Source: an uncultured bacterium (GTDB lineage Bacteria; Fidelibacterota; JAANXI01). Taken from it: DNA of 64,000 bases. A program made the position numbers and the translations under genes. Below, piece after piece: positions 10,394-64,000 of this stretch (position 1 is its first letter; each line of letters opens with the position of its first letter). The notes below the pieces were generated by a model that was given only the letters and a program-made list of their open reading frames with translations, did not search any database and was not told the DNA's origin. Location of the stretch: assembly GCA_964413425.1 (NCBI GenBank), contig CAYPST010000007.1, positions 10,987 to 74,986 on the forward strand, written 5' to 3'.

Positions 10394-13300
10394 TTAAACC
10401 TGATTCGATATTTTAAATCCAGACCATATCGCTGTTCTTGATTTGTTTCAGTCACCAGATACCAATGATCCGACAGTTCATAATTAATCCGAATCCCCTG
10501 TTGGTTTGATTGACCGATGGAAGTGGAGTAAGTTAACGTGAGCCGGGGAGAAATACTTTTTGCCGCCGTGAAGGTAGGCGTATGTCGCCCGGAGAGCTGG
10601 AACAAATTCCCTTCGATTGCAACCCGGTCCAGATCAAAAAGCCGCCCTACTCTGTATTCAACCACAGAAGCGATCTTCTCACTTGAGATGCGACTCGCCT
10701 GTCTGATGAAAAATTGGCTTAAATTGCCTTCTCCGGAAACCCCGGAAAACTGATCTCGCGGACGCCCCACTGCCAGTATTCCCAGAATATCACTCTGGGT
10801 AAGCGACTCATTCGTGTGCGGCCTGGTTGCCGGTTTGGAAGCGAACCGGACCTGGGGATTTCGTAACGTATTGGTAATATTTAAAACTATTGTATAGTCT
10901 ATATCATCTACATTTTGATAGGCAGGGATAGTAGTCGTTGCCTGGATATCCAGTGTGGGATTCAGTTCCGGACCTCCCGTGAAAAGTACAGTTCCGTTTT
11001 CGATTTGAAAATTTCTCCCGACATATTTGATGTATCCCTTTTCTGCCACGATTCGTCCGGTAAATCGTGGCTGAAAGAGTGGACCGGTAGATTGCACATC
11101 CGCGGTAAAATCGAGTGAGGCCAGGTTATTATTCACTTTGATATTCTTTAATGCTTGTATGGCAACATTGAGCTGGATATTCTGGAACATCTGTTGTGGC
11201 AAGCGAGGCGGTCGTACCGTCCGAGTTCCGATGAAGGATAACGGCTGAAGGTTGTGAATTGGCTTCGTATAGGTGAAGGAGGCCACAATGATATTTCCGG
11301 TAAGTAATGAGGTTTGGCCGGAGGTGGTGGTGATACGGAGTTTGGATGGAGCGATAGTTATCGCCACCTCCCCCGGACGCGTCAGATCAAATTGTTCACT
11401 GTGCACTGTGATATCATATTGCAGTGGTGCGTGAGGTACTATATCAATGCTTCCTGATATAGTAAGAGGATTCTCATCGATATCGACGTGCATATTGATT
11501 AAACGTATTGTAGAGCCGGTGAAATCAGCCCGGAAATGTCCGTTCCGCAAGTGTTGTTCGAAGTACGGCAAGTCAGATTCAAATCCGGTTATTTCCACCG
11601 AGCCCTGTATACTGCTGCCTCCTGGGACGGTTTTCCGGTACGCCATGTCAGCGCTTAAATCTCCGGATATATTGTAATCTCTTCCGGAAAGGGCTCCCAG
11701 GGATTCCAGCGCGAATCCGCGCGCTTGCAGTGATAAAAATATCTCTTCGCCTATCAACCCCAATGAGAATGTGTCCAGGTCGAAGATGGCCGAGATATTC
11801 CCGGTGCCTCGTACGAATGAGGCTGCATTGGATACAAGCAGCGTATCCAGAACAAACTGCTGGTTACTGTAGTGAGAACGGAAATGAGCCTCAGGAAAAG
11901 CCAGCTCTCCGAAGGAGAGATTATCGGCTTGTCCGTTCATTATGAGCGTTGGTTTTTGTCGTGATCCGGATAACCGGAGGGAAAGGTTGAGCTGGCCTTG
12001 AATTTCTCGTGGTGTTTTGAGCATTGTTAAGAACTGTGATAAAGGTATGCTGGAGACAGAAAGATGACCTTCCAGAGAATCTGTTGCCTCATCATGATAC
12101 AAATTCACCCGGAAAGGCGCTGTTTCGTTAAAAGATCCCGATATCCCGGCCTGTAAATATTGACCTCTATCATACTCAAATTTACCATCAAGAGTGATCG
12201 AATAATCGTTTATATAGGTGGCAAACTGCCGTATCAGGGTACGTTCATTTTGAAATTCTATATGCAACTGCCCCCGTGACGTCTGCCATTTCCGGAGTGG
12301 ATTATTCAAGGCGATATCAGTTCCGCGGAGGCTCCCCTGAATATTCGGGGCTTCGAGTCCCCCGCTAAGATATACATCCGCATTGAGTCTTCCCGAGTTC
12401 GCACGGACAAGGGAGGTGAATTGATTGATTATGGAAATCGGAAAATTAGCGAGGGAGAAGGCAACAGACGCCGAGTCCCCGGACGATGATGCAGTGGAAT
12501 CGTTGTTTACGAGTGCAGAGAGTGGCAGTTGGCCTGTGATGGTCATGTTTCCGCTATCTGCTGCACACGCAAAGTGTCGTAGAGTAATTTGATTCTCTGA
12601 GTAGGCAACATTCCAGTCAATCTTCCAATCGAGAGGAGTCGGATTCATTGTTGGGAGAAGGTATCCCCGGCTGTTCAGAGAGAGTCGATTCTCAATGACT
12701 CCGGCCGCCTGGAAATCTGCCGTCAGTGCACCACTGGCAGTGTAGTTCTCAGGAATATGGTCCTGCAAGATCTGTAAAGGGATATCCAGCATCTGAACAG
12801 AGGCTGTGTCTGACTCCCGAGCATAAAAGATACTGATTTCACCGGCGGGCCGAACATATATCTTTCCTTGAAAATCGGGTTCCAGGGTCCCTTTCCCGGT
12901 AATATCGATTGGATAACTCTGATATCTGAATGCAAGTTTCCGAATCTCAAATTGTTTGCCCTGAAAGATGATCTCTCCGTTGAGTGCTTCCACAGGCGGT
13001 TTGGTATCCTGCCATTGGACGTATCCGGAATCAATACGAATCCCGCCGGTTATACTCGGTCTATCATAGTAACCAGTAATTCGAACAGACGGCGTGATTG
13101 TACCATCGACATCCCAGGAGGGAGGAAGAAACGGGTTCAGAAGATCAATGGGCCAATTATGCCCGGAAGCCTGAACATCTAGAACATTACTTGAATCGAA
13201 TGGCAGGAATCCCCTGATTTCTGCAGCAATTGTTCGTGTTCGTGATACAGCCATCCCTCGTTCCACTGTTATCCCCTCTTTTTGTACCGAATAATCCAGG

Positions 13301-21763: not shown

Positions 21764-22017
21764 GAGTCTATTTAGAAAACGCCTCGCCCGAAGGGATGCT
21801 ACGAAGTCCCGGAAGGTCCAAGGGACTCCTTCGGAGGATCCCGTTGGGGGAGTCTCTTCGAGGCCTTTGGCAAAGAGATCCCGTGACGACGGGACAAAGA
21901 ACCAATGAATAATTGTCTCCTGTATCCCGAAAAACATGTGGGAACTATGTTCTGCATATACTCCATGGAAGCCGGGCGCAACAGTCTGTAGAGACTTACT
22001 GTTTTCTAAACACTCTC
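21764..22017 (+). mobile_element. MITE-like element, copy 1 (141-bp core plus 113 nt of nested hairpin modules)
   Basis: TIRs GAGTCTATTTAGAAAAC / GTTTTCTAAACACTCTC; perfect 8-bp flanking duplication ATTACTTT at 21756-21763 and 22018-22025. Confidence 0.88.
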
Positions 22018-23623: not shown

Positions 23624-23793
23624 GAGTCTATTCAGAAAACGCCTCGCCCCCAAGGGATGCCTCTTCGGGGCAAAGAACACATGAACAATTGTCTCCTGCA
23701 TCCCGAAAAATATTCGGGAAATATGTTCGGTATATACTCCATGGAAGCCGGGCGCAACATTTTGTAGAGACTTACTGTTTTCGAAACACTCAC
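23624..23793 (+). mobile_element. MITE-like element, copy 2 (141-bp core plus 29 nt)
   Basis: Same TIRs, slightly decayed; 3' part is collinear with copy 1 (CTCCATGGAAGCCGGGCGCAACA...GTAGAGACTTACTG); no clean TSD. Confidence 0.82.
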
Positions 23794-24289
23794 TTTATAA
23801 ATATATGCCTGTGGATAAGTTGTGACCTAAGTTGAGCGATACGAGTGCCCCACTCTGGGGTCCCTCTGGGACAGCGAAGTATCGCTGTACTTCGGTAGAA
23901 CCCCGACTGAGAAAATGTGTGTTTTCACCGAATGGGTGCGGAACGTCCCGACGCCGTTTTCGGGGAGGGGAACACGTATGCCGAAGGCATTCTTCGAACA
24001 TTTTGGTTGTGAACAAATCAGGATATTGATGACTGCTGATAGGTCATATTGGTTCATGATGCTTGTATTAGACACCAGTGCCTGTGCATATAAATACCTA
24101 TTTTATTGCCACATTAAAACATTTATGCACTAAGGGCTGGCATACTTTTTAGGTCATATTTGTCCTCAATTACTGTATACTATTATTTCCGGGGCTTCTG
24201 AGACAGCAACAAGTATAAATACCTGTTACGCAAACAGCTCGTTAAGTATTTATTGAAGTTTATATGACATCCAAAAATCAAATTTATTA

Positions 24290-24985: not shown

Positions 24986-25115
24986 GAGAGTGTTTGGAAA
25001 CAGTCCTTTGCAGTCTTGGCGAACTTTGCCCTGTCCCACTCCGAAGGAGTCTCTGTGAGAACGGGTTCTCAGTGCCAAAGGCATCCCCTGGGCGAGGCGT
25101 TTTCTAAATAGACTC
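24986..25115 (-). mobile_element. MITE-like element, copy 3 (short variant)
   Basis: GAGAGTGTTTGGAAAC ... GGCGAGGCGTTTTCTAAATAGACTC, with internal hairpin modules. Confidence 0.8.
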
Positions 25116-56623: not shown

Positions 56624-56840
56624 GAGAGTGTTTAGAAAACATGAGCCTGATGCACGATGCTAAATTTAACTTATGGTTATTATTTATATAACATATATAC
56701 AAAATGTATTTCGGTATTTAGGCATATATAATTTATTTTTTCTTTGCGTTCTTTGTCCCGAAGGGATCCCGTTGGGGCGGCCTCTGCGATCTTTGTCCCA
56801 TCGTCACGGGATCTCTTCGGGGCGTTTTCTAAATAGACTC
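56624..56840 (-). mobile_element. MITE-like element, copy 4 (168-bp core plus 27- and 22-nt modules)
   Basis: GAGAGTGTTTAGAAAAC ... GTTTTCTAAATAGACTC; both flanks carry ATATTT. Confidence 0.85.
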
Positions 56841-59055: not shown

Positions 59056-59141
59056 GCCGAGGTGGTGAAACTGGCAGACGCGCCGGACTCAAAATCCGGT
59101 GGGGTTTACACCCCGTGCGGGTTCGACTCCCGCCCTCGGCA
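59056..59141 (+). tRNA. tRNA-Leu(CAA)
   Basis: GCCGAGG...CCGGA-CTCAAAA-TCCGG, long variable arm GGGGTTTACACCCC, GGTTCGACTCC...CCTCGGCA. Confidence 0.96.
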
Positions 59142-59468
59142 CTGCTCTTTTCCTGTTCTTTTGTTCCTCCCTTTACTCCTCTCTCCAATGTCTATCCCGT
59201 GCTTCAATGTGTTGCCGGGTCTGTGTTCCACCCTCATAATCTTATCCTCTGCAGATGCCGATTCTTGTAGGGTGCGTCACCTGTACAATCTGCCGACTTC
59301 GTCTCTATATCGCAGGTAATGGAAAAGGAATCCTAATAAATTCAGATTACTTTAAGAAATTTTTTCGTGGGTTCCAAGTCAATTTTCATGCCGGGTATTT
59401 TCTCCTCAAGCAGCCTCCATTTTACGAACAGATAACCTCCATCGCAGGAAAGAAATTTCTAACAAGGT

Positions 59469-59729
59469 GAGAGTGTTTAGAAAACATGAGCCTGATACAA
59501 GTTGGCGGACTTGGCCTATGTTTATTATGGAGATAAGATATAAGCACAATGTATGACGCTATTTGGACGGATATATTCTATATTTTCTTTGTCCCAGAGG
59601 GATCTCTTCGAGGCGTTCTTTGTCCCAAAGTTATACCGTTGGGGCGACCTTCGCGATCTTTGTCCCGTCGTCACGGGATCTCTTTGCCGAAGGCATCCCT
59701 TCGGGGCGAGGCGTTTTCTAAATAGACTC
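59469..59729 (-). mobile_element. MITE-like element, copy 5 (168-bp core plus 93 nt of modules)
   Basis: Same TIRs; perfect 8-bp duplication AACAAGGT at 59461-59468 and 59730-59737. Confidence 0.9.
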
Positions 59730-59890
59730 AACAAGGTGTTTTTATTTTGACAGATTTATGAATAATCATTAAACTTGATTTGTTAGAAATTATAATCCAC
59801 TGACAGAAAACCTTTTACTGCAGTGGTAACCGGAACGCAGATGCTTCTCTATCCATTCATTGAATGCAAACTCTGACAAGGAGGAAGAGT

Positions 59891-61225
59891 ATGGCAGAGC
59901 AGGATATCAGAATAACCAGACGTGAATTTCTATCCCGCAGTTCCCAGGCGGCTGCCGGTGTGATCGCCGGAAGTGCACTGCTCCCCTCATTCGTTCAGGG
60001 CTCCCAGGTGCTCGGAGCGAATGATCAGATTAATCTGGCGGTCATCGGTATTCGCGGGCGCGGCGGAAGCCTTGCCCGGGGCTTTGCGGAGAAACAGAAT
60101 GTTCGGGTAAAAACCCTGGTTGACATCGACGAACGAGTATTCCCGGATCGGGTCAAACAAATCCAGGAAATCCAGAATTCCGAACCCGGCACTGAAGTTG
60201 ATATGCGCCGCACCTTTGAGGACCCCGATATTGATGCGGTGGTGATCGCCACACCAAACCACTGGCATTCGCTGGCAACCATCTGGGCCTGTCAGGCCGG
60301 GAAAGATGTGTATGTAGAGAAACCGGGCTCCCATAACGTGTGGGAAGGCCGGAAAATGGTGGAAGCCGCACGTAAATATGATCGGGTCGTGCAGCATGGA
60401 ACCCAGATTCGGAGCAGTGTAGGCATTCAGGAGGCAATACAACATATTCGTGACGGGCTCCTGGGCGAAGTATACATGGCAAGAGGCTTATGTTACCGCT
60501 GGCGCGGTTCCATTGGAAAAGAGCCGATTAAAGCGCCTCCGAAAGAAGTCCATTATGATCTCTGGCTGGGTCCGGCGCAGTACGAACCCTACAGCGAAAA
60601 CCGGGTCCACTATAACTGGCACTGGCAGTGGGAATACGGCAACGGTGACATCGGCAATCAAGGTGTTCATCAGATGGATATCGCCAGATGGGGTCTGGGC
60701 GTCGAGCTGCCCAGCCGGGTAACCTCCATGGGAGGCATGTTTCTCTGGGATGACGATAAGGAAGTTCCCAATGTGATCAACACCTCCTTTCTCTACCCGG
60801 ATGCCGGTGAGAAAGGAAAGATGCTGGTATTCGATACCCGTCCCTGGATGACCAATGACGAAAAAGGCGCCAAAGTCGGCGTAATTTTCTATGGCTCCGA
60901 AGGGTACATGGTGATTGACAGTTACAGTCACTATAAGACCTATCTCGGCCGAGATGAGGAACCGGGGCCGGAAAACGAAGCGGGCGGTGATCACCAGGCT
61001 AATTTCATCGAAGCGATGCGATCACGAAATCGCCATTTGCTGACTGCTGAAATCTACGAGGGGCATCTCTCCTCTGCGCTGTGTCACCTGGGATTGATTG
61101 CCACTCGTCTGAACCGGAACCTGGAGTTTGATCCCGATATCGAGCGGTTCATCGGCAGCGAAGATGCCAACGCTATGTTGAAACGGGACTATCGGGAACC
61201 ATTCGTCGTTCCGGACAAAGTGTAG
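59891..61225 (+). CDS. Tat-exported Gfo/Idh/MocA-family oxidoreductase
   Basis: ITRREFL Tat motif, IGIRGRG, ATPNHWH, YVEKP and GDIGNQGVHQMD; ATG after GAGGA. Confidence 0.93.
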   Translation: MAEQDIRITRREFLSRSSQAAAGVIAGSALLPSFVQGSQVLGANDQINLAVIGIRGRGGSLARGFAEKQNVRVKTLVDIDERVFPDRVKQIQEIQNSEPGTEVDMRRTFEDPDIDAVVIATPNHWHSLATIWACQAGKDVYVEKPGSHNVWEGRKMVEAARKYDRVVQHGTQIRSSVGIQEAIQHIRDGLLGEVYMARGLCYRWRGSIGKEPIKAPPKEVHYDLWLGPAQYEPYSENRVHYNWHWQWEYGNGDIGNQGVHQMDIARWGLGVELPSRVTSMGGMFLWDDDKEVPNVINTSFLYPDAGEKGKMLVFDTRPWMTNDEKGAKVGVIFYGSEGYMVIDSYSHYKTYLGRDEEPGPENEAGGDHQANFIEAMRSRNRHLLTAEIYEGHLSSALCHLGLIATRLNRNLEFDPDIERFIGSEDANAMLKRDYREPFVVPDKV

Positions 61226-62832: not shown

Positions 62833-64000
62833 ATGGCTTCAAAACCAGAAGGAATGACGCGACGGGAATTCCTTGCACGCAGTACGATGGCCGCTGCCGG
62901 AGTGGCCGCAGCCAGTTCCCTGGCTGCGCCACGGAAGAATGTCCTGGGGAATCAAATGGGCGCGAACGAAACCATTAACATGGCCGTGATGGGAATCCGG
63001 GGCCGGGGACAGTCCCTTATCAACAACTTCGGGGAGATGGAGAATGTCCGGATAAAAACCCTGTGTGACGTGGATGAGAAGTTGTTTCCGGACCGGGTAA
63101 AGATGACGGAAGAAGTGCAGGGATCTCGTCCGGGCACGGAATACGATATTCGCCGCGTCCTGGAGGATCCGGATATTGATGCGGTGGGAATGGCGACCCC
63201 GAATCACTGGCATGCCCTGGGAACCATCTGGGCCTGCCAGGCCGGAAAACATGTCTACTGTGAGAAACCGGCCTCCCATAATATCTGGGAAGGACGCAAG
63301 ATGGTTGATGCCGCTCGCAAGTATAACCGCATAGTCCAGATCGGATTCCAGAACCGATCCAGGCAGAACACCAACGCCGCCATGAAATTTCTCCACGAGG
63401 GCGGTATAGGTGAGGTGTACATGGCTCGCGGTCTGTGCTTCAAGCCGAGAGGTGATATCGGCAATCCTCCGAATCAGCCCGTACCGGAAGGGCTCCATTA
63501 TGATCTCTGGCTCGGTCCGGCTCAGGAACGGCCGTTTAATCCGAACTATGTGCACTATAACTGGCACTGGCACTGGGCGTTCGGGAACGGTGATACCGGG
63601 AACCAGGGCCCGCATCAGTTCGATATCGCCCGCTGGGGTCTGAACAAGGAAGAAGCCCCCATTAAAATCAGTTCCAAGGGCGGCTACTACGTCTACGATT
63701 CGACTCAGGAAACGCCGAATACCCAGACTTCCATCTATGAATATGCCGACGGAAAGGTTCTGGAATTCGGAACCCGCGGCTTGTTCACCAACAGCGAAAG
63801 TGAACAGACAATTGGGGACATTTTCTATGGCAGCGAGGGATGGATGGAGATTGATGCCGGTGGAAACTGGAAGACCTACTTCGGCCGCGATAATGAGCCC
63901 GGTCCGTCCTCGGAGGAAACCGATGAAGAAGAATATGATGCCATGGATCTCATCGGCGCCGGCGGTGGTGGGCACTTCGCGAACTTTATTGCAGCGGTTC
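62833..64000 (+). CDS. Second Tat-exported Gfo/Idh/MocA-family oxidoreductase; runs off the window end and is missing from the ORF track
   Basis: My translation from the ATG at 62833 (after GGAGG): MASKPEGMTRREFLARS...INMAVMGIRGRG...ATPNHWH...YCEKP...GDTGNQGPHQFD. Confidence 0.9.
   Translation, partial: MASKPEGMTRREFLARSTMAAAGVAAASSLAAPRKNVLGNQMGANETINMAVMGIRGRGQSLINNFGEMENVRIKTLCDVDEKLFPDRVKMTEEVQGSRPGTEYDIRRVLEDPDIDAVGMATPNHWHALGTIWACQAGKHVYCEKPASHNIWEGRKMVDAARKYNRIVQIGFQNRSRQNTNAAMKFLHEGGIGEVYMARGLCFKPRGDIGNPPNQPVPEGLHYDLWLGPAQERPFNPNYVHYNWHWHWAFGNGDTGNQGPHQFDIARWGLNKEEAPIKISSKGGYYVYDSTQETPNTQTSIYEYADGKVLEFGTRGLFTNSESEQTIGDIFYGSEGWMEIDAGGNWKTYFGRDNEPGPSSEETDEEEYDAMDLIGAGGGGHFANFIAAV

Follow-up and report, generated by a model that had tools for sequence, protein, structure and literature searches.

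The insertions of about 22 nt described here, which lie in copies of a miniature inverted-repeat transposable element (MITE) in the genome of an uncultured bacterium, are probably copies of a family of non-coding insertion modules that act at the level of DNA and are mobilised in trans without duplicating their target. The window, by which we mean the whole analysed stretch of 64,000 nucleotides (positions 10,987 to 74,986 of contig CAYPST010000007.1), belongs to a genome (G000) of 4.40 Mb in 195 contigs with 50.8% G+C. To the exact nucleotide, the modules are present in some copies and absent from others of DNA that is identical elsewhere; they nest in one another, and no target-site duplication accompanies them. 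We infer movement in trans because a module has no coding capacity. The MITE of the window is just one among several carriers.

Modules are precise insertions in the window and across the genome

The window has five MITE copies (two on the plus strand, three on the minus strand), four of which were compared in pairs. In copies 4 and 5 the module block, of 75 and 119 nt respectively, lies between a 20-nt head and a 122-nt tail; the two blocks differ by exactly 2 x 22 nt. For copies 1 and 2 the corresponding values are 109 and 25 nt for the block, 23 nt for the head and 122 nt for the tail. Heads and tails being equal within each pair, all the length difference falls in the module block. These measurements agree with an earlier, sequence-only reading of the window, which had given the copies lengths of 217, 261, 254 and 170 nt (copies 4, 5, 1 and 2) and an equal length within each pair once the modules were removed. 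The extra 22 nt that it placed at 59591-59612 of copy 5 are an exact indel between this copy and copy 4, and the second 22-mer, at 59685-59706, was also correctly placed. Both 22-mers were retrieved as precise 22-nt indels relative to paralogs in a scan of the genome (C7:70577, i.e. window 59591, 22 nt with an ambiguity of 1; C7:70670-70672, i.e. window 59684-59686). Copy 1 carries a nest of four modules, followed by the basal unit CTC-GAA-GAG / TCCC-GTGACGAC-GGGA, and for every level of this nest other MITE copies exist without the inner level. With precise indels and nesting to four levels, the proposal of a very small, structure-defined unit that inserts into MITEs and into itself held.

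The scan searched, for each repeated 12-mer, another copy with the same left 12 nt and, past a gap, the same right 12 nt. It used no structural criterion and returned 1664 events, slippage in heptamer arrays being flagged separately. Non-tandem indels numbered 19, 19 and 6 at 17-19 nt, 37, 64, 110 and 64 at 20-23 nt, and 18, 6 and 4 at 24-26 nt, so that the predicted clustering of lengths near 22 nt was found as a peak at 20-23 nt. A second peak at 42-45 nt (46, 23, 19 and 38 indels) fits double modules. Twin hairpins were present in 169 of the 275 indels of 20-23 nt, as against 10 of the 291 with lengths of 12-19 or 24-40 nt. After collapsing, 134 filled sites remained in 44 site clusters (a few of which are one site read on opposite strands); 42 of the 134 had an empty paralog at least 95% identical over 40 nt on either side, and for 6 the identity was 100%. 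Filled and empty states, as expected by the sequence-only reading, were thus found between paralogs with up to 100% identical flanks, without the 1-nt duplication that it had attached to them. The site clusters are spread over three or more unrelated repeat families, and include heptamer-like arrays (CCGTCTG, CACGAAT) as well as the loops of longer hairpins (e.g. CCCGGGAT..ATCCCGGG).

The exact structural descriptor first proposed gave 491 and 506 matches on the two strands, as against 293-326 in three Markov-1 simulations. It thus exceeded random sequence, and its enrichment is modest because its information content is low. A twin descriptor with CC/GG cores gave 476 matches compared with 126 and 105 in simulations, and the pattern CCCNNNGGGATSCCNNNGGSA gave 64+64 matches, its reversed form none.

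Two adjacent 11-nt palindromes form the module

The structure was assessed with the 46 of the 110 events of 22 nt that fitted NNCC-3-GGNN twice in an allowed phase, corresponding to 29 distinct sequences. This selection imposed the CC/GG core and left the outer pairs free. The four outer stem pairs were Watson-Crick in 22, 27, 24 (plus 4 G-T) and 29 of the 29 inserts, whereas shuffles gave means of 14.8, 16.4, 15.4 and 21.8 and maxima of 21, 23, 24 and 26. The second stem pair alternates among C-G, G-C and T-A. Compensatory stem changes, already pointed out from a few modules, are thus seen above shuffles in the whole set. On reading the list of inserts, the 5' loop is A- or purine-rich and the 3' loop T- or pyrimidine-rich, on either strand; because this pattern persists under reverse complementation, the unit has pseudo-dyad symmetry.

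The module is best read as two adjacent 11-nt local palindromes, (T/C)SCC-NNN-GGS(A/G), each with a 4-bp stem, for a total of 20-23 and mostly 22 nt. This reading is preferred because a T precedes the CCC in 107 of 115 copies from other genomes. It retains the two small hairpins of the geometry first given and replaces the unequal stems (3 bp, an A, 4 bp) by two equal ones.

Folded as DNA, the module at 59685-59706 formed on both strands a single 7-bp hairpin, CCGAAGG/CCTTCGG (-7.6 kcal/mol; z -3.2 and -4.3), and the module at 59591-59612 one 4-bp stem (about -2 kcal/mol; z about 0). Nearest-neighbour folding thus does not favour the twin minihairpins that had been proposed. Hirao and colleagues reportedly found d(C-GNA-G) triloops to be unusually stable, and the energy model used may not include such triloops. 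The long hairpin cannot be a common feature of the modules, because the loops of most variants are non-complementary and the covarying positions would be left unpaired in it.

The same 22-mer occurs in several phyla

The 21-mer CCCGAAGGGATGCCTTYGGCA was searched in one genome per species (185,579 species). It was found exactly in at least 116 stretches, where simple arithmetic with equal base frequencies predicts about 0.5, and 115 of the 119 usable instances had unique flanks. Extended by the T that precedes it in 107 of 115 instances, it becomes the 22-mer TCCCGAAGGGATGCCTTYGGCA, made of two 11-nt halves. Among the 80 matches listed, the titles of metagenome-assembled genomes (MAGs) name Bacteroidota/Bacteroidetes, Chitinophagaceae, Saprospiraceae, Bacteroidales, Cyclobacteriaceae, Prolixibacteraceae, Rikenellaceae and Mariniphaga, as well as Ignavibacteria, Melioribacteraceae, Calditrichota, Chlorobiota, Balneola and Halalkalibaculum; further titles among them are one 'Patescibacteria group' and two 'uncultured bacterium'. 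Record titles of carriers of the 22-mer also include the cultured species Melioribacter roseus and Chitinophaga pinensis. The genome of the window has 8 C-terminal domains of the type IX secretion system, which fits the Bacteroidota-related Fibrobacterota-Chlorobiota-Bacteroidota (FCB) group. Within its phylum, the pattern CCCNNNGGGATSCCNNNGGSA was present in 51 of 251 genomes and the reversed control in none of the 251. Its distribution is patchy (14 of 22 genomes in one genus, none of 20 in another whose genomes measure about 1 Mb) and its load reaches 64+64 matches, symmetric variants matching both strands. The modules are not phage-borne; one viral contig among 2.9 million carried the 22-mer.

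A few copies lie in open reading frames (ORFs), whose families were named from their translations. Removal of 22 nt at locus L050 restores a complete YHS-like ORF of 60 residues, which the module frameshifts. Two Chitinophagaceae MAGs (L087 and L116) share a 22-nt copy in a RibD_C-like ORF, the part of which downstream of the insertion looks degenerate. At L035, two in-frame copies of 21 nt, on both strands, lie within long ORFs; one of these is mutS-like and gains seven residues from the insert. The ORFs around the module in the single-copy carriers G015 and G020 gave no lead.

Insertion sites are precise and lack a target duplication

In other genomes the flanks tend to read A-T-T-N on the left (of 115 copies, 52, 71 and 87 have A, T and T at positions -4 to -2) and N-A-A on the right. 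Opposite flank positions did not covary, and bases -1 and +1 were identical in just 11 of 107 copies, which indicates that there is neither an enclosing stem nor a target duplication. An outer stem around the module was accordingly rejected as a candidate: it occurred in 6 of 115 copies, compared with 2.0 in shuffles (maximum 6). The 1-nt target duplication, to which the sequence-only reading had likened identical flanking bases, was rejected too.

Insertion into heptamer arrays allowed the boundaries to be fixed by the period of the array. When deletions of 17-28 nt were tried, the one that best restored the period was 22 nt in 8 of 8 cases, and in 7 of these the boundaries were exactly T|CCC...GGCA|. 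Period-7 continuity over the junction was seen in 10 of 115 instances, compared with 0.6 in shuffles (maximum 3). The intergenic heptamer arrays (e.g. CTACAGC, ACTCCAA, ATAATTC, GGAATTT) were met at L020, L028, L040, L059, L093, L096 and L098, which are Bacteroidota-related; at L020 several diverged modules are interleaved with the units of the array.

The favoured sites are hairpin loops, short tandem arrays (heptamers and nnCGCAAAG 9-mers) and AT-rich TTN^NAA. Strand bias relative to replication was looked at in four genomes, each with only 6-22 copies of the asymmetric subtype spread over several contigs; one contig of 1.9 Mb had +++ followed by ---.

Carrier MITEs, neighbouring genes and other inserts

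The modules and carriers of the window are listed in Table 1. The carriers, of 130-261 nt, have terminal inverted repeats, a target-site duplication and many copies, and a congener has empty sites: neither copy 4 nor copy 5 is present at the syntenic places in G001:C151, which belongs to the sole genome of the same genus (flanking genes about 81% identical). Because of the 8-bp duplication and of these empty sites, the carriers are ordinary, recently active MITEs. The termini of the family, GAGTCTRTTTAGAAAAC and GAGAGTGTTTAGAAAAC, occur 243 times in the genome, and strict pairing of termini recovered 46 whole copies. At its A end, the MITE is in essence a short run of nnCGCAAAG 9-mers, and some copies consist of the array alone (e.g. 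C132:2637, C35:24966); modules enter this array at CGC^AAAG. The chromosome that holds the carriers is bacterial and has housekeeping genes.

Table 1. Modules, carrier MITE copies and target-site duplications, in window coordinates
Feature	Position	Strand	Remarks
Four-level module nest	21787-21872	+	MITE copy 1; 21 + 22 + 23 + 20 nt
Nest level 1 (outer, 21 nt)	21787-21799 plus 21865-21872	+	copy 1
Nest level 2 (22 nt)	21800-21806 plus 21850-21864	+	copy 1
Nest level 3 (23 nt)	21807-21816 plus 21837-21849	+	copy 1
Innermost nest level (20 nt)	21817-21836	+	copy 1
24-nt module CCCCACTCTGGGGTCCCTCTGGGA	23848-23871	+	in hairpin loop of a separate repeat family of about 80 copies (CCTAAGTTGAGCGATACGAG...); scan event C7:34834
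22-nt module CCCAACGGGATCCCTTCGGGAC	56755-56776	-	copy 4, at CGC^AAAG 9-mer unit; scan event C7:67741
22-nt module CTCGAAGAGATCCCTCTGGGAC	59591-59612	-	at CGC^AAAG 9-mer unit of copy 5; missing in copy 4
Degenerate 22-nt module CCCAACGGTATAACTTTGGGAC	59622-59643	-	copy 5 counterpart of the intact module of copy 4; scan event C7:70608
Longer-loop hairpin TCCC-GTGACGAC-GGGA	59662-59678	-	with CTC-GAA-GAG, basal unit at the MITE A end
22-nt module CCCCGAAGGGATGCCTTCGGCA	59685-59706	-	within CTC-GAA-GAG hairpin of copy 5; belongs to the cross-phylum subfamily
MITE copy 1	21764-22017	+	254 nt
MITE copy 2	23624-23793	+	170 nt; one degenerate module within its 25-nt block
MITE copy 3 (short)	about 24986-25115	-	carries module CTCACAGAGACTCCTTCGGAG at 25039-25059, minus strand
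MITE copy 4	56624-56840	-	217 nt
MITE copy 5	59469-59729	-	261 nt; terminal inverted repeats GAGTCTATTTAGAAAAC / GAGAGTGTTTAGAAAAC
8-bp target-site duplication AACAAGGT of copy 5, left	59461-59468		
8-bp target-site duplication AACAAGGT of copy 5, right	59730-59737		

A tRNA gene (59056-59141) lies about 330 nt upstream of copy 5. Two paralogous genes next to each other show 73-80% DNA identity (60082-60381 against 63027-63326; 60605-60697 against 63550-63642); judging from its sequence, the first of the two, which has a twin-arginine-like N-terminus, may be an oxidoreductase of the Gfo/Idh/MocA type.

Three other repeats share sites or copies with the modules. A micro-insert, AATCAT(T/G)TGGGGTAACATACAAG, measures 23 nt, lacks the twin-hairpin form and has 19 copies in the genome at up to 3 mismatches. 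All four examples listed (C2:106991, C2:90161, C3:32439 and C4:28500), like the other copies inspected, lie at CCGAAG^GGAT, in the GAA loop of a module, a site shared with nested modules, and are bounded by a 3-nt AAG repeat. The repeat family CCTAAGTTGAGCGATACGAG ... CGAAGTATCGC (window 23830-23900; about 80 places in the genome) has a hairpin loop that is a recurrent module site, and this single site hosts several different inserts. An element with the ends TATGACTATTAA.../...TTAATAGTCATA (119 end matches; e.g. G000:C39:23036-23449, C82:2448-2765 and C10:28703-29284) is itself inserted within MITE copies; its CCCGGGAT..ATCCCGGG hairpin occurs with and without a module, the flanks being 100% identical in some of the empty paralogs.

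How the modules may be moved

In the reading that we favour, an enzyme with its gene elsewhere would copy the modules, or cut and paste them, at the level of DNA. It would recognise the two small palindromes, the simplest form for recognition being an extruded or single-stranded hairpin. The identity of the 22-mer in several phyla could reflect the tolerance of this enzyme, horizontal spread, or both. A wider proposal, which we hold only tentatively, is that the modules form a cross-phylum class of 22-nt mobile DNA, moved in bacteria of the FCB group by a putative dedicated, structure-specific enzyme whose requirements would keep the 22-mer identical in Bacteroidota, Ignavibacteria, Chlorobiota, Balneolales and Calditrichota. 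Besides reshaping other mobile elements and tandem arrays, such an element would now and then alter genes, by in-frame copies of 21 nt or frameshifting copies of 22 nt.

Several observations weigh against a mobile module. Folding revealed no excess stability of twin minihairpins: z was about 0 in two of the three modules folded, and the third preferred the 7-bp hairpin. A comparison of the Y1_Tnp and RVT_1 profiles over the 251 genomes of the phylum found no mobilising enzyme. Flank preferences disagree: nested sites in this genome favour RAAG^G, sites in other genomes TTN^NAA. The 134 filled sites are not 134 insertions, because many modules rode along when their host repeat transposed, and many pairs copy the same few events. 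Some 'empty' paralogs could stem from the precise loss of a palindrome by slippage. A filled/empty allele at orthologous positions was not obtained at the level of the module, since the same-genus genome G001 has no MITE copy at these sites and the divergence of its intergenic DNA is too great; the contigs of four DNA metagenome runs on the region had joints that came from paralogous copies, which made them uninformative on alleles.

We considered the possibility that the modules are REP-like substrates (REP, repetitive extragenic palindrome) of an HUH Y1 transposase, either a RAYT or the TnpA of IS200/IS605, and are cut and joined as single-stranded hairpins. This is unlikely in our view. In its favour, the modules, like IS200/IS605, make no target duplication; their left flank shows partial conservation (the A, T and T described above), and they prefer hairpin loops and tandem arrays. 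Against it, IS200/IS605 ends are asymmetric, whereas the modules have pseudo-dyad symmetry. IS200/IS605 elements insert 3' of a fixed tetra- or pentanucleotide; the left flank of the modules is A-T-T-N in 45-76% of copies and is not fixed. Y1_Tnp (PF01797) was found in 45 of the 51 module-bearing genomes of the phylum and in 111 of the 200 others, but the gene is common (156 of 251) and the comparison is confounded by relatedness, genome size and incompleteness. Furthermore, Y1_Tnp was not seen in six module-bearing genomes (G040, G043, G045, G129, G180 and G222), among which G045, 92% complete, has 8 pattern matches and G043 has 7. The genome of the window has one intact Y1_Tnp gene, of 148 codons (G000:C144:5470-5814; L125 1492-1937), but it is bracketed by repeated blocks of three different, longer hairpins of the GAAGCCCGCAGGGCTTC / CAACCCGGAACGGGTTG type, with 6-9 genomic copies. 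It resembles a RAYT with its own REPs, and modules occur near it solely as inserts in other hairpin loops. The modules also lack the GTAG/CGTC tag that a passage of PMC3733652 gives for REPs. The link with HUH enzymes and RAYTs drawn by the sequence-only reading is thus weak, given the separate repeats of this gene and the six genomes that show none; the HUH route is no more than the leading specific candidate for the enzyme. Spread through an RNA intermediate and reverse transcription appears more doubtful still. The lack of flanking duplications, the argument used for Allomyces, and the covariation of stem pairs, with G-T pairs on one strand, would agree with it. However, RVT_1 was present in only 10 of the 51 module-bearing genomes compared with 36 of the 200 others, so that the association with reverse-transcriptase genes for which a test had been suggested was not observed; it was not seen in six of the nine richest genomes (G002, G041, G125, G155, G114 and G039), and loops of 3 nt and pseudo-dyad symmetry would suit DNA better than RNA.

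The modules might also be immobile and owe their distribution to repeat recombination or gene conversion, to slipped-strand events at palindromes, and to selection for some role in the host, for instance as a protein-binding site or an RNA structure. In this genome, most copies indeed lie within recombinable repeats (136 of the 476 matches to the CC/GG-cored descriptor have a 'repeat' and 123 a 'mixed' context), and for one site different empty paralogs give different apparent boundaries. We nevertheless regard this explanation as very improbable, in view of the clean 22-nt breaks in heptamer arrays and ORFs of unrelated genomes with unique flanks, of the same 22-mer in several phyla, and of modules in different repeat families; moreover, the flanks are T-rich on the 5' and A-rich on the 3' side, the opposite of an intrinsic terminator. 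We give equally little credence to the idea that a nuclease cuts another copy at the base of its double palindrome and that the 22-bp duplex thus released is taken up at blunt double-strand breaks in sites of the TTN^NAA type. Element and preferred target are both dyad-symmetric, and there is neither duplication nor microhomology, but this scheme is purely inferential, and TTN^NAA does not describe the nested sites in this genome.

If mobile, the modules would rank with the smallest transposable DNA units, in a bacterial group that is large and of ecological importance. With 22 nt, no duplication and an exact cross-phylum sequence, and with hundreds of natural filled/empty pairs, they offer a route to a mechanism that has been open since the cyanobacterial small dispersed repeats (SDRs) and the mitochondrial double-hairpin elements. 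For annotation, it matters that modules enlarge and diversify MITEs, break small ORFs and add in-frame inserts of seven residues, as in the mutS-like ORF.

Comparison with known systems

In Rfam, the window at gathering thresholds and the segment 56400-59900 at E up to 1 yielded tRNAs only. Neither the 21-mers nor their reverse complements were found in the papers searched, and nothing relevant was found on nested or palindromic repeats in Bacteroidetes, supplements being outside the scope of both literature searches. An exact match to a described REP or palindromic family, which the sequence-only reading had named as a finding that would count against it, did therefore not turn up in Rfam or in those papers.

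The closest likeness is with the SDRs. In 2008 Elhai and colleagues reportedly described SDR1-8 of heterocyst-forming cyanobacteria as precisely inserted elements of 21-27 nt, often situated in tandem heptamers or miniature transposons and some within their own copies. Three of the families are said to share a secondary structure backed by compensatory changes, and an RNA intermediate with reverse transcription was reportedly proposed for their spread. A passage of PMC4390886 has SDR5 precisely inserted within HIP1, and a passage of PMC5861425 reports SDRs from Nostocaceae only. Judged by these described traits, the match is remarkably good: the modules have a modal length of 22 nt and insert exactly, they occur in heptamer arrays and mini-transposons, nest in themselves and show compensatory changes. 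They differ in their hosts, the SDRs being reported from Nostocaceae and the modules found in Bacteroidota-related lineages and Calditrichota, under non-cyanobacterial record titles.

Mitochondrial double-hairpin elements, which Paquin and colleagues are said to have put at 26-79 nt in 2000, provide the second likeness. Those of Allomyces are described, in a passage of PMC2800124, as two adjacent G+C-rich stem-loops, dispersed, sometimes in genes and without flanking duplications, for which an RNA intermediate was suggested and which are not removed from transcripts. Two adjacent stem-loops kept by compensatory change, the lack of flanking duplication and an occasional location in genes are traits that the double-hairpin elements share with the modules. 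In contrast with these elements and with GC clusters, which belong to organelle genomes, the modules lie in bacterial chromosomes and measure 20-23 nt; unlike the double-hairpin elements, they nest deeply, and one of their subfamilies is identical in sequence across phyla.

REPs, bacterial interspersed mosaic elements (BIMEs) and REPINs resemble the modules in being short, dispersed, high-copy, non-coding palindromes that are presumed to be mobilised in trans and whose loops other elements enter. In REPs, according to a passage of PMC3733652, a palindrome of 20-40 nt ends on one side with a conserved tetranucleotide, GTAG or CGTC. No such terminal tetranucleotide was seen in the 29 distinct inserts (0/29) or in the cross-phylum 22-mer, and a module has two 4-bp stems rather than one imperfect palindrome of 20-40 nt. 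In REP/REPIN-RAYT systems the RAYT gene is flanked by the repeats that it disperses, whereas the repeats on either side of the RAYT-like gene here are not the modules; the co-occurrence with Y1_Tnp is incomplete. The module is also not itself a MITE, because it makes no target duplication; it is about ten times smaller than a MITE and could be seen as two inverted ends of 11 bp with nothing between them. The modules, for whose lineages we found no description of such elements, thus most resemble a rare known kind, that of the SDRs and the double-hairpin elements.

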